A stretch of 64,000 bases of DNA, taken from Escherichia phage RCIP0319. The first letter of the stretch is position 1, and every line of letters begins with the position of its first letter. The DNA is taken from sequence record PV464738.1. One strand, given 5' to 3'. This document shows, piece by piece, positions 40,982-45,044 of this stretch. The position numbers and the translations under genes were made by a program. The notes under the pieces were generated by a model, which worked only from the letters and a program-made list of their open reading frames with translations, was not told the origin of the DNA and did not search any database.

Positions 40982-42064
40982 ATGGCCAGTTTAAGAGAAG
41001 AAGCAAAAATAATCGAAGAGTTTTTGACGGAACTCCAAAGAGGCATTCCAGAAGATGAACGCGTCATGACCGTGTTTGCGCCTGAAGCAACGGTGCAGAC
41101 CGACGAGCGCGGCAAAAAGATTAACAGCAGCTTCTGGCCTAAGCCTTGGAAGCTTGGCAAGCCGCTGATGCAACATCAGAACGGTTACGCCTGCATAAGT
41201 TCAATGCGTAAGTCTCCCAACCCAAAGACAGGCGAGATGCGATACTGGCGCACGGAATCGGCTTTCGGTCATGGCATGGCGATGATGGTCGACGACATCG
41301 GACACGGTAAAGGGTCCAAAGGCGATTTGGATTTGGAGTTCTTTTTCGAGCGCCTAAAACCAACCGTCATTGTCGAGACTTCGCCGAACAACCACCAGCT
41401 GTGGTACTTCTTTAAAGAACCGATTGACCATCTTATTCAGTTCAAAGCATTCCTTGGGTCTTTCGTAAGCATGGTGCTCAAGAAGGGCGGCGACAACACG
41501 ATTAAAGACGTGACGCGCGTGGGCCGTGTTCCTGGTTGCATCAACAACAAGCGTGTGACTCACGACGGCCCCTATAAATATGTCGATGAGAACGGCGACC
41601 CGTTCCGCTGCCGACTTGTTCATGCAGACTATTCTTTGCGCTACACAATCGAAGAGATTTGCCAAGCCTTCGGTTTCCACGTCGTTATGCCGCAAAAGCG
41701 TGAAATTCAAATCGACGTTGACGAATACAAATATGACGCTGTTTGGTATAAGATAGCCCAGCAGATCCTTGCGCGCAATAAGATGGGCGAAGGGTCCGAT
41801 GGCGATGTGGTTGAAAACATGTCAGGTAAATGCCGCATCATCTGCCCTTGGGGTGAAGAGCACACCAACGGCGACCCATACGGCGCTTATTTTCGCGGCC
41901 CAATCCCTGGCGCTGAACATGAATTCGTTTTCGGTTGCGCTCACGACTGTCACCGGAAAGGGGAAGGCAAGAAAGGCTGGACCGCTTTTGTTGAAGCAGT
42001 AGTCATGCCTTATATTGAGAATCAACTTGATATGATAAATCGTCGCGCAGGTGGCATAAAATAG
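40982..42064 (+). CDS. archaeo-eukaryotic-type primase (PrimPol-like) with C-terminal Cys/His cluster
   Basis: 360 aa; AEP-like motifs MMVDDIGHG (DxD), SPNNHQLWYFF, RVGRVPGCINNK; C-terminal CPWGEEH...CAHDCH. Confidence 0.5.
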   Translation: MASLREEAKIIEEFLTELQRGIPEDERVMTVFAPEATVQTDERGKKINSSFWPKPWKLGKPLMQHQNGYACISSMRKSPNPKTGEMRYWRTESAFGHGMAMMVDDIGHGKGSKGDLDLEFFFERLKPTVIVETSPNNHQLWYFFKEPIDHLIQFKAFLGSFVSMVLKKGGDNTIKDVTRVGRVPGCINNKRVTHDGPYKYVDENGDPFRCRLVHADYSLRYTIEEICQAFGFHVVMPQKREIQIDVDEYKYDAVWYKIAQQILARNKMGEGSDGDVVENMSGKCRIICPWGEEHTNGDPYGAYFRGPIPGAEHEFVFGCAHDCHRKGEGKKGWTAFVEAVVMPYIENQLDMINRRAGGIK

Positions 42065-42122
42065 TTTGCTTTTATTTTTCTAGCAACTATAATCATTTTA
42101 TGAACTGAAGCAGAGGTGATTT

Positions 42123-42269
42123 ATGCAAAGCGAAGAATTGAACATCGAGTTTGAAGGTCTGTTAAATTCGTTAGAACCTAAGCACGTAGAGTTTCCCACC
42201 CTTGAAGGCGTCATGGCTCACCACCAATCGGCTGCGGCCAAACACTACTCTGAATTTGTTAAGGAATAA
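42123..42269 (+). CDS. small protein (48 aa)
   Basis: RBS GAGGTG then ATG; stop 2 nt before next gene; below track cutoff. Confidence 0.3.
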   Translation: MQSEELNIEFEGLLNSLEPKHVEFPTLEGVMAHHQSAAAKHYSEFVKE

Positions 42270-42271
42270 AA

Positions 42272-42562
42272 ATGAACGAACCAAAAATGATGACCACTGA
42301 AGAAGCACAAAAACTTCGCGTGGAGAACGAGCTGAAGCTTGTCAATGAAATTCTTCCTCTGTTTAAAGGCTATGCGGTTGAAGAAGTTGTTGGCGCAATC
42401 CTTAATGTTTCGACGCACGTGGCGATGAATCTGAATGCAGAGCGTTTCAATACTTTGCTGACGATTAACAAATTCACTGTCAGTGCAACGTTTACCGTTG
42501 AGCCAGTGAATTTTGAAGAAGCTGCAGCCGCGATTCAACAACAGCGAGATCAAGAGGTGTAG
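42272..42562 (+). CDS. hypothetical protein
   Basis: 96 aa. Confidence 0.3.
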   Translation: MNEPKMMTTEEAQKLRVENELKLVNEILPLFKGYAVEEVVGAILNVSTHVAMNLNAERFNTLLTINKFTVSATFTVEPVNFEEAAAAIQQQRDQEV

Positions 42563-42563
42563 C

Positions 42564-42827
42564 ATGGGTGCTTTCCGCAACGAGTTTGTTTGGAACGTCA
42601 CAAGCAGTCTTTCGACTTGTCCTAACTGTGCAAGCGATGTGATCAAGGTGCGGCAGCATCGCAATGCAGAGGAAGGTGCCTGGGAGGACGGCGACCTTGT
42701 AGAGTGCCAGTGTTGCTCTCACGAAGGCGTGGTGGAGCTTTACGCCGGAGAAGGTTGTCCACCAGCAGAACGTACAGCACGCGTTGAATGGGATGCGACA
42801 GACTCCATCGGTGATCCTCAACAGTAA
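42564..42827 (+). CDS. zinc-ribbon protein (hypothetical)
   Basis: RBS AAGAGGTG; CPNC...CQCC Cys pairs; 87 aa. Confidence 0.35.
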   Translation: MGAFRNEFVWNVTSSLSTCPNCASDVIKVRQHRNAEEGAWEDGDLVECQCCSHEGVVELYAGEGCPPAERTARVEWDATDSIGDPQQ

Positions 42828-42845
42828 ATTTAGGTATAGATACAT

Positions 42846-42950
42846 ATGAAAGCCGTAAAGAAATACACATTAATCATTTCCCTTGTTATCATCCTGGGGC
42901 TATTATATGTATTGGATATGGCATATTATTTGGCAGGGGTGAGTAAATGA
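42846..42950 (+). CDS. small membrane peptide (34 aa)
   Basis: MKAVKKYTLIISLVIILGLLYVLDMAYYLAGVSK; stop overlaps next start. Confidence 0.25.
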   Translation: MKAVKKYTLIISLVIILGLLYVLDMAYYLAGVSK

Positions 42951-43237
42951 ATATTGTAATTCTTTATGGTGAGAATATCAGCGATGACGACATCGAAGTT
43001 GCCGTTGATGTTTACGGTATCGATGAGGTGAAACGTGTTGAAGAAATTAATGGCTCAAATCTTAATGAGATTGCCAAAGAAGCTGGTTGCCCTTCGGAAG
43101 AGATTCTGGTGGTTACTAACGATGACCTGTCTTCTATGGATTGTTTGCGCCGCATCTTCACCGATTGCCAATACCTTCATTCTGTTCAGTCAGTAAACAA
43201 ATTGAGAAAGGCATACGCTGACCAATTTCCTTGCTGA
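42947..43237 (+). CDS. small acidic protein
   Basis: 96 aa, strongly acidic (SDDDIEVAVDVYGIDE...). Confidence 0.35.
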   Translation: MNIVILYGENISDDDIEVAVDVYGIDEVKRVEEINGSNLNEIAKEAGCPSEEILVVTNDDLSSMDCLRRIFTDCQYLHSVQSVNKLRKAYADQFPC

Positions 43238-43287
43238 TAGTTCACCAGTTATATTGCTTTAAACTGAGTTTTACTATATTAATATAC

Positions 43288-43313
43288 AACGCCAGATTTC
43301 TGGCGTTTATTTA
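43288..43313 (+). terminator. rho-independent terminator
   Basis: ACGCCAG-ATTT-CTGGCGT hairpin followed by TTATTT. Confidence 0.5.
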
Positions 43314-43373
43314 CCGCACCCTGAAAGGATATATCCATGCAACAATATAACAAAGCCGTATCAGGAGGATTAA

Positions 43374-45044
43374 ATGTCAATTGAACATGACAATCTTCCA
43401 GAGGATACAGGTGATGAATTTGGTGCAATCTTTGACGAAATTCAAGACGCTGGTGTTTCAGAAGAGATGCAAGCGGCAGAGCAACAAGGCACCAGAGCTA
43501 AAATCAGCCTCCAGCACAAGTCTGTTGAGAAAGATGCAGAGCGCATGGAATGCTACGGTGAAGAAGACTTGGTTGAAAGAGCACGTTTGCTCGCCTCACT
43601 TCAGGTAATCAAGTTCCCTCACTACAAACCGACGAAAGATGATTTTGTTCTTCAGGCGGACCGGACGAGTGACATGAACCGTTATGCGGTTTTCGACGCG
43701 TTGTTTGATAAGGGAAGCGGCATTGTCCCATTCCCTCACAAAGATACTTTTCGTGGACGCTTAGTCGACCATCGCGGAGAAACATTCACCGACCGGACGC
43801 TGGAAGTCACAGAGATAGTTGCCGCTGTCGACGCAGCAGGTCTGTCCAACCCAAACTCACGTCAGGTCGCTCAATCCTATAAGGAATGGGCCATGCGTTA
43901 TCAGCGCGACGACCTGATGGACTTCTTCTACAAGAAGCTTCCTGAATGGGACGGTACTGCGCGCATTGAGAAATACCTTATCGAGCTATTCCGACCGTTC
44001 GATACAGAGTTAAACCGACAAATCGGTGTGTATTTTTGGCTATCGCTCTATAACCGCCTTACCAACCCTGGCTGTCAAGCGCCAATCTCCATCGCGCTCA
44101 TCGGCGGCCAGAACGCAGGGAAGAGTTATTTTAGTAAGCTGCTTTGCGAAGCTATTATGAACGACCGCCACGCAACACCGATTCCGTTGAACTTGGCCGC
44201 GCAAAACTTCAACCCGTTCTTGCGAGCTATTACGGGTCGCTCAATTATCGCGAACGTTGGCGAGATGACAGGCTTTAAAAAGGCTGACATCGAAAACATG
44301 AAAGCATTCCTGACTAAGACGGAAGATGACCTGGACTTCAAATTTGAAGACACGCAGGTTAAACCACGCCAGTGGATTGCTATCATGGACGGCAACGAAT
44401 ACGCAGGCATGCAGCGTGACGATACGGGCAACCGTCGTGTGTACCCTATCTTTGTTGGCCAACTCGCTGACAAGGACGGGCAACCGAACTGGTCTAAAGA
44501 CTTCCAAGCTGACCTTTCCACTTTGAAAGAAGACGTTTGGCAGCTGATGGCTGAGTGCGCTGCGTGGATGGAGAAGCACGGCGAAGCAGGTTACAACGCC
44601 TTTGTTGGTGAAACATCTCGTATGCTTACTGAGTTCAGCAAGAACGAAATGGAACGCGCTCGCGGCGTTATCCGTGACGAGATGGTCGACAACGACCTTG
44701 TTGAAGTCGTCATTACCGCGCCTTATGACCGACATCACAGCGGACGCTGGCACATCACCAGTGGTGCAATCGCTATGGGATTCAGAGCTAAGTGCGGCAA
44801 GTCGCCTTTCTCACGTACCCTTGCGCCGCACATGTCGAAGCTTGGATTTGAGCCTGCAACCTATCGCAACCAGCGTGGCTACTTTACGCCGCTGATTAAG
44901 AATGAAGCAGGGGAATACATTTCTGACTTGATGACTATCTTAGCGTATCTTATCCGCGACGAGTCTGACCCTGAAGATATTGAATTCTTGAAGAAGGTTA
45001 TTGAACGCAAACGTTCTTTAGGAAGAGATAAGGATGAATTCTGA
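43374..45044 (+). CDS. SF3-type helicase / VirE-D5-like NTPase (primase-associated)
   Basis: 556 aa; Walker A IALIGGQNAGKSYF in C-terminal half; RBS AGGAGG. Confidence 0.6.
   Translation: MSIEHDNLPEDTGDEFGAIFDEIQDAGVSEEMQAAEQQGTRAKISLQHKSVEKDAERMECYGEEDLVERARLLASLQVIKFPHYKPTKDDFVLQADRTSDMNRYAVFDALFDKGSGIVPFPHKDTFRGRLVDHRGETFTDRTLEVTEIVAAVDAAGLSNPNSRQVAQSYKEWAMRYQRDDLMDFFYKKLPEWDGTARIEKYLIELFRPFDTELNRQIGVYFWLSLYNRLTNPGCQAPISIALIGGQNAGKSYFSKLLCEAIMNDRHATPIPLNLAAQNFNPFLRAITGRSIIANVGEMTGFKKADIENMKAFLTKTEDDLDFKFEDTQVKPRQWIAIMDGNEYAGMQRDDTGNRRVYPIFVGQLADKDGQPNWSKDFQADLSTLKEDVWQLMAECAAWMEKHGEAGYNAFVGETSRMLTEFSKNEMERARGVIRDEMVDNDLVEVVITAPYDRHHSGRWHITSGAIAMGFRAKCGKSPFSRTLAPHMSKLGFEPATYRNQRGYFTPLIKNEAGEYISDLMTILAYLIRDESDPEDIEFLKKVIERKRSLGRDKDEF

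Follow-up and report, generated by a model that had tools for sequence, protein, structure and literature searches.

The window analysed here is a 64,000-nt stretch of Escherichia phage RCIP0319 (record PV464738.1, one strand), which carries two genes of DNA replication between positions 40982 and 45044. The first (40982–42064, + strand) encodes a 360-residue archaeo-eukaryotic primase (AEP) of the RepB' family and the second (43374–45044, + strand), a 556-residue superfamily 3 (SF3) helicase of the VapE/VirE type. Both ORFs are present exactly as an earlier sequence-only reading had given them. The profile searches which that reading had proposed as a check were run, and the primase and helicase families both score far above their curated cut-offs. 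The two proteins belong to these folds and families, their active sites are conserved and so is their neighbourhood, which comprises a DnaE polymerase, a DnaQ-like proofreader, a ligase, a Dda-like helicase and an SNF2 translocase. Very probably, the two genes are the phage's own replicative primase and helicase, that is, a mobile-element-type primase-helicase split in two and inherited vertically as a module across PB1-like myophages.

Positions 40900–45100 are 98.7% identical to Escherichia phage vB_EcoM-Ro157lw in a nucleotide comparison with deposited genomes, and identity is 93–98% for a further 27 Wifcevirus genomes, among them FEC19, ECML-117, WFH, Mansfield and the BASEL phages Bas98–101. 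Judged by this comparison, the source is a Wifcevirus-type E. coli myophage. Wifcevirus members are lytic myophages of 66–72 kb, distant kin of the Pseudomonas Pbunavirus, and their replication is reported to be unusually fast (PMC11990801). In deposited records, both genes are mostly named 'DNA primase' or 'hypothetical protein'.

The primase and the helicase

The primase gene is the first of a rightward operon. This is headed by a sigma-70-like promoter at 40925–40952 (+ strand; TTGACT-16-TATACT, 10/12), called solely from its match to the consensus; in total, the region has no more promoter-like sites than shuffled sequence would give. Such a promoter would suit early or middle expression by the host RNA polymerase. 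A Shine-Dalgarno-like AGGA precedes the start codon.

The catalytic domain spans residues 40–237 (nt 41099–41692) and is followed by a linker helix. PF16793 (RepB_primase) matches exactly these residues with 126.1 bits against a cut-off of 24.3 (E 1.9e-36), covering profile positions 4–181 of 186, and PHROG 4861 ('DNA primase') spans the protein over its full length. The AlphaFold2 (AF2) model agrees, as it has the AEP catalytic fold and is confident (pLDDT 86.9, with 86.4 for the helicase). Thus, the product is an archaeo-eukaryotic-type primase, as had been read from the sequence, and it is of the RepB' kind. NCBIfam models matched neither the primase nor the helicase.

Conservation was assessed in an alignment of 42 primase sequences from metagenomes and phages. 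The invariant residues are D104-D105, S134, N137 and Q139, followed by D171, D176, R179, R182, P184, N188, N189, K190 and R191. The strings on which the sequence-only reading had relied, SPNNH (residues 134–138) and RVPGCINNK (182–190), are both present; its catalytic residues are in part different ones. The three DxD triplets of the protein (DLD at 115, DVD at 245 and DGD at 273) are not conserved, with D115 kept in 9/42 sequences and D117 in 6/42, and the invariant acidic pair is D104-D105 instead. Similarly, the histidine of SxxNH is not a fixed residue, as position 138 is Y in 24 sequences, H in 9 and F in 9, and it is the neighbouring Q139 that is invariant. In RepB'-like primases, the motif II histidine of canonical AEPs is replaced by a conserved glutamine (PMC5862659). 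The 'NH' is coincidental, therefore, because the motif II residue of this family is Q139. The invariant D104, D105, D171 and D176 provide the acidic residues of motif I and, putatively, motif III. The family profile aligns the ETSPGNYQLWY block (shared pattern ETSPxNYQxW) with VVETSPKNYQAW of RSF1010 RepB', at an E of 0.05 only.

The catalytic domain is followed by a Cys/His zinc-type domain (residues 278–330, nt 41813–41971) and a C-terminal helix. The cluster comprises C284, C288, H294, H313, C319, H321, C323 and H324. Its C-terminal position had been noted correctly from the sequence. Only four of its residues (C288, H294, C319 and H321) never vary in the alignment. C284 and C323 are confined to particular lineages, and at position 324, 34 sequences have C and the other 8 have H. 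From this pattern, the likely zinc ligand set is C-x5-H-x24-C-x4-[C/H], which is also kept in remote relatives, one of them without the H321 equivalent. The domain is the best conserved part of the primase (77–89% identity across genera), and it has no meaningful match in Pfam (E<=10) or, as a profile, in PDB sequences. It sits where RepB' and S-2L PrimPol have a helix-bundle/PriCT domain. Here, the phage protein differs from RSF1010 RepB' (PDB 3H20/3H25), whose C-terminal domain is a helix bundle (PriCT-1); the phage primase has the zinc-type domain in that place, together with one long helix. By analogy, the domain may be the module that binds the template and the initiating nucleotide and that is needed for priming.

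The helicase gene has a strong AGGAGG ribosome-binding site ahead of its start. The protein can be divided into an N-terminal domain (residues ~61–188), the ATPase core (189–383, nt 43938–44522), a long linker helix and a winged helix predicted from the AF2 model (~431–510, nt 44664–44903). PF05272 (VapE-like) matches residues 189–407 with 100.1 bits against a cut-off of 25 (E 1.6e-28), a full-length PHROG match was found and the model shows the SF3 AAA+ fold. The earlier assignment to SF3 thus stands, and the protein is of the VapE/VirE kind, related to D5, E1 and the SaPI Reps. The Walker A string IGGQNAGKS lies at residues 243–251. Among 43 helicase homologues, G244-x4-G249-K250-S251 (Walker A), E297 (the Walker B acidic residue), N341 (the motif C asparagine) and R354/R355 (the arginine finger) are invariant or nearly so, and Q246 and R348 are further invariant residues.

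The sole PDB sequence match of the helicase is SaPI1 Rep1 (7pds, E 4e-11). The alignment takes in the Walker A motif, the 'EE/GE' block of Walker B and the TGNRR block of the arginine finger, and with 358 residues it extends far past the ATPase core. In the AF2 model, residues 436–504 run helix-strand-helix-helix-strand-strand, which is predicted to be a winged helix as in the SaPI Reps. Of the structured parts of the helicase, this region has diverged most, with 26–34% identity as against 58–62% in the ATPase core. When searched alone, residues 1–190 and 409–556 have no Pfam match. The 'DNA primase' label that the helicase bears in deposited records is a misnomer, carried over from primase-helicase fusions.

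Primase and helicase as a probable functional pair

That the two proteins form a pair had been proposed from the sequence alone. The genes themselves are ~1.3 kb apart, with about six small ORFs between them, and it is their fused relatives that support the pairing. A profile of the zinc-type domain was searched exhaustively against 1.84 billion cluster representatives and gave only 33 matches. Four proteins of 856–963 residues (P0250, P0253, P0258 and P0261) combine RepB_primase, the zinc domain and a VapE/DUF5906 helicase in a single chain. In P0260 and P0268 (662 and 703 residues), the zinc domain is joined to an AAA_25 (RepA/DnaB-like) ATPase, and in P0271 (743 residues), to D5_N and DUF5906. 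The one-polypeptide fusion of primase and SF3 helicase is found only in distant relatives of the phage pair. As gene-fusion evidence, these sequences nevertheless support the view that the primase and helicase work as a functional pair.

The same order of domains is known from PrimPol-PV1 fusions. In the PrimQH family, an AEP, a zinc-binding domain (ZnBD) or PriCT, a VirE ATPase and a winged helix are fused, with the VirE domain in 56% of members (PMC5862659), and S-2L PrimPol has the same fused series from AEP to winged helix (PMC8065100). The Wifcevirus genes are this series split in two, with AEP and zinc domain in one gene and helicase and winged helix in another, 1.3 kb away. Within the Kazlauskas clusters, the phage primase may fall in either RepB' or PrimQH. 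RSF1010 RepB' has different partners, namely the RecA-type RepA helicase and the RepC initiator rather than an SF3 helicase. P4 alpha, poxvirus D5 and NrS-1 are more distant kin; P4 alpha and D5 are fusions in one polypeptide, which the phage pair is not.

The sequence-only reading regarded the combination of such a pair with a bacterial-type DnaE replicase as an unusual mosaic. The polymerase is indeed encoded in the same genome (PF07733, 3e-63; PF17657, 1e-37), and the combination is a normal phage arrangement. A homologue of the primase occurs in 364 phage records, of which 294 are from Pseudomonas phages and 26 from Escherichia phages, with others from Serratia, Vibrio, Erwinia, Burkholderia, Xanthomonas and Pantoea phages; Pbunavirus, Wifcevirus and Kylevirus are all included. 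In phiLCL12 (Pbunavirus) and Pantoea phage Kyle, the leftward operon has a common order (polymerase, exonuclease, PNK, ThyX ... Dda-like helicase) and the divergent rightward operon holds the primase, small ORFs and the helicase. The pair is kept at 45–72% amino-acid identity, with the same neighbours, in at least three genera. Primase homologues and helicase homologues also have longest contigs of equal lengths, an indirect sign that the two genes co-occur. A global phage survey found bacterial and archaeo-eukaryotic replication parts to be 'typically intermixed', with the purely bacterial set of DnaB, DnaG and PolC in only eight phages (Kazlauskas et al., PMC4889955).

The genes are also already known and annotated, and their orthologues have been discussed in print. 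'RepB family DNA primase', 'VirE superfamily' and 'DnaE superfamily' are labels in use in GenBank, and a 2025 paper on the Pbunavirus Banzai described the orthologous module and named the SaPI-like helicase as the probable initiator (PMC12390725). That phage has, in the same order, a DnaE-like polymerase, an epsilon-like exonuclease, a RepB-type primase, a SaPI-Rep-like, self-loading helicase, a Dda-like helicase, an SNF2-like translocase and a ligase. Pbunavirus identity to the window is 64% for the primase and ~45% for the helicase. The two groups differ in the spacing of these genes: in Wifcevirus, about six additional small ORFs lie between the primase and the helicase, and the helicase is followed by ~10 kb of small genes.

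How the pair would work can be proposed by homology. As in the SaPI Rep, the helicase would recognise origin DNA by its C-terminal winged helix and load itself as a hexamer, without a separate loader. Its hexamers would assemble on either side of an AT-rich region, as homology with the SaPI Rep suggests (PMC9371898), and would unwind 3'→5' along the leading-strand template. In the primase, D104, D105 and D171 (or D176) would hold the metal and Q139 and R182 the nucleotide. With its tethered C-x5-H-x24-C-x4-[C/H] domain, the enzyme would make short primers on the exposed single strand, priming the displaced strand and the first leading strands. DnaE and the DnaQ-like exonuclease would extend the primers and the ligase would seal the fragments. 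More speculatively, the origins would be two inverted-iteron, AT-rich loci at ~1070–1340 and 55060–55345.

Two points weigh against this replicative reading. The sequence similarity of the primase to RepB' is marginal (E 0.05–0.7) and, because Dda-like and SNF2 helicase-like proteins are also encoded, the replicative role of the SF3 protein is putative. These last two proteins lend weight to the idea that the SF3 protein is an origin-binding initiator only, or has another role, while the Dda-like helicase or host DnaB unwinds the fork; moreover, bacterial DnaE-type polymerases normally partner DnaB-type 5'→3' helicases. Nonetheless, every SF3 catalytic motif is invariant in the homologues, and the nearest relative of known structure combines the functions of initiator and active helicase (PMC9371898). 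In T4, SF1B enzymes of the Dda type are accessory helicases. This idea is therefore very unlikely. The AEP could also be a primase-polymerase that serves mainly in repriming, translesion synthesis or as a second replicase, rather than as the lagging-strand primase. This seems unlikely, as a complete polymerase (DnaE with the DnaQ-like exonuclease) is already encoded, the window holds no second gene recognisable as a primase, AEPs without proofreading are thought to be mainly primases in vivo (PMC5862659) and the AEP-helicase fusions of its relatives are the classic primase-helicase arrangement.

The RepB' and VapE/SaPI Rep families were first defined on plasmids and genomic islands, and the interval between primase and helicase varies between genera, both of which would fit a plasmid or satellite cassette, recently acquired as a true mosaic insertion. 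The conservation of the pair and its neighbours across genera speaks to the contrary, no integrase or flanking repeats were seen and the GC content at the pair (0.45–0.48) is as elsewhere in the window, whose base composition is uniform. The one plasmid match to the primase that could have pointed to a plasmid origin is weak (Legionella, 25% identity). Because of this single weak match and the uniform composition, a recent plasmid origin is unsupported, and we consider a cassette of this kind extremely improbable. A vertically inherited, replicative primase-helicase pair is the reading that we prefer.

Neighbouring genes and the replisome

The interval between primase and helicase (42123–43350, + strand) holds about six small ORFs of 34–96 residues, as defined by the Bas100 annotation and by translation. 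None of them has a family match; for the two 96-residue ORFs, this is the outcome of Pfam and PHROG searches. A Cys-rich small ORF (CPNC...CQCC) lies at 42564–42827 (+ strand); in Kyle, the corresponding stretch encodes a 'zinc binding domain protein'. In Pbunavirus, the interval is taken up by a single 186-nt ORF. The helicase is followed by a 215-residue ORF (45044–45691, + strand) whose start shares one base with the helicase stop, and this overlap indicates that the two are translationally coupled. Searches of Pfam, PHROGs and NCBIfam gave no match to this ORF; Kyle has an ORF at this position (KYLE_93) and Pbunavirus has none.

The DnaE-superfamily (family C) polymerase of 967 residues (29963–32866, − strand) lies in a divergent, leftward operon, 8 kb from the primase. 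In addition to the matches given above, it has a PHP domain (PF02811, 8.2e-06), so that the PHP, Pol III alpha core and finger domains are all represented. It passes the superfamily model TIGR00594 (475 bits, cut-off 434) and is below all NCBIfam equivalog cut-offs (e.g., 496 vs 1002 bits). The matches end near profile position 853/1146, leaving the C-terminal third of bacterial alpha, with its OB and tau-binding region, unmatched, and nothing in bacterial alpha subunits corresponds to the last ~180 residues. A simple pattern search for a Qxx[LM]xF clamp-binding string in DnaE found none, which is not conclusive. The ORFs scanned yielded no clamp or clamp loader and no homologue of DnaG or DnaB.

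Directly upstream of DnaE is the DnaQ/epsilon-like DEDDh 3'-5' exonuclease (32866–33408, − strand; PF00929, 1.8e-21, with NCBIfam epsilon-type matches). The Dda/RecD-like SF1B helicase (39311–40495, − strand; AAA_30, 1.2e-22; UvrD_C_2, 3.1e-13; phrog_325, 2.8e-100) belongs to the same leftward operon and is divergent from the primase. The SNF2-type translocase is at 28040–29563 (− strand; PF00176, 1.3e-21; Helicase_C, 5.8e-11) and the ATP-dependent DNA ligase at 24088–25065 (− strand; phrog_114, 5.2e-42, with weak Pfam matches to the ligase OB and adenylation domains). A PNK-phosphatase-like protein and ThyX are encoded at 34958–35830 and 35827–36657 (both − strand).

Three further leftward genes were observed in this region. 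A FabG-like short-chain dehydrogenase gene (34209–34892) lies within the replication operon and is an auxiliary metabolic gene in the Bas100 annotation. A 157-residue ORF (29560–30033) overlaps the 3' end of DnaE by ~70 nt and matches phrog_2165 ('DNA helicase'), without helicase motifs; by eye, it has a D...E-x-K string (GVPDVIG...WLEMK) like that of VRR-NUC/PD-(D/E)xK nucleases. A 281-residue ORF (38312–39157) has periodic repeats of 33–36 nt and encodes a Lys/Ala/Glu-rich low-complexity protein; its PHROG match is phrog_4765 (unknown function), and in phiLCL12 it bears the label 'putative TolA protein'.

Candidate replication origins

Two candidates for an origin were found by their repeats. 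Locus A (1070–1340) has tandem 9-bp units (TACGGATGATACGGATGATACG), next an AT-rich core of ~95 bp with ~80% AT and then the same units in inverted orientation; locus B (55060–55345), a candidate origin and/or packaging site, is its paralogue. The two are collinear and share a 30-nt identical block, and their cores (~95–110 bp, ~80% AT) are the two AT-richest stretches in the window. In a k-mer scan of the window, the 12-mer TACGGATGATAC had 10 exact copies, all within two places; allowing <=2 mismatches there were 14 matches against 3.0 ± 1.8 expected. Judged from phage Mansfield, the part of the genome outside the window has no further copies.

Both Kyle and phiLCL12 have a pair of such loci, at homologous positions, which are also the two AT-richest segments of each genome. 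The iterons differ by genus, being GGTTATT/ATATCCGAA in Kyle and AATTACC in phiLCL12. A divergent winged helix together with changing iterons is what is expected of a specificity domain that tracks its iterons. The Rep winged helix binds SaPI origins, in which inverted iterons lie on both sides of an AT-rich region (PMC9371898). By this analogy, loci A and B may be two duplicated origins whose 9-bp iterons are read by the fast-evolving winged helix of the helicase, a proposal that we hold tentatively and as somewhat less than probable. The likeness to SaPI1 Pri/Rep1 (PDB 7PDS) is incomplete. The SaPI origin is directly downstream of rep and has iterons of 5–6 nt, whereas the phage loci are far from the helicase gene, duplicated and built of 9-bp units; in addition, the phage infects a Gram-negative host, is lytic and encodes a DnaE of its own. 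One of the two phiLCL12 loci, however, has a SaPI-like placement, in a 963-nt gap directly downstream of the helicase gene.

Other observations count against an origin at these loci. The candidates are ~10 kb and ~40 kb from the helicase gene instead of adjacent to it, and the region around the two genes (38–47 kb) has no iterons or origin-like repeats; a search there turned up only chance-level short repeats and the coding repeats of the Lys/Ala/Glu-rich ORF. A published GC-skew analysis puts the Pbunavirus origin elsewhere, inside the polymerase gene; no mapped origin is in the literature for any PB1-like phage, and this proposal is the sole published one. GC skew was also considered as an origin locator in the window and was set aside, as it follows gene orientation. 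Finally, in Mansfield (by its PhageTerm annotation) and Kyle, the left end of a 3.6–3.7 kb direct terminal repeat falls within the AT core of locus B, with terS after it. Because the core is thus the genome end in relatives with a direct terminal repeat, locus B could have a packaging role, which is equally possible. A purely packaging role is opposed by locus A, which is not at a genome end, and by the retention of both loci in Pbunavirus: Wifcevirus relatives package with the terminal repeat, whereas Pbunavirus is reported to be headful and circularly permuted, without one.

A separate repeat, TAGTGCAAAT, occurs in 7 copies at 55550–56434, all on the minus strand and irregularly spaced, in and around terS and just inside the terminal repeat. 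Similar copies number nine in Kyle, nine in Mansfield 1–16000 and none in phiLCL12. This array is a better correlate of terminal-repeat packaging, and it is possibly a terminase recognition array. In addition, a GC-rich YGCCGCR motif flanks the AT cores (1000–1400 and 54990–55360 in the window), on the + strand to the left and on the − strand to the right, in all six loci examined. Its enrichment is modest and post hoc (p ~0.005–0.01 per genome), and it is given as a lead only.

For annotation, these results allow sharper names: the first gene encodes a RepB'-type AEP with a rare zinc-type domain, and the product of the second gene, also labelled 'DNA primase', is an SF3 helicase, probably of the self-loading kind. 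The practical gain beyond the existing annotation is the fusion evidence that primase and helicase cooperate. If the origin proposal is true, firing of locus B at the terminal-repeat boundary could couple origin firing to duplication of the repeat and to packaging. Loci A and B are, in any case, concrete origin candidates for Wifcevirus and Pbunavirus, groups that are used in phage therapy.

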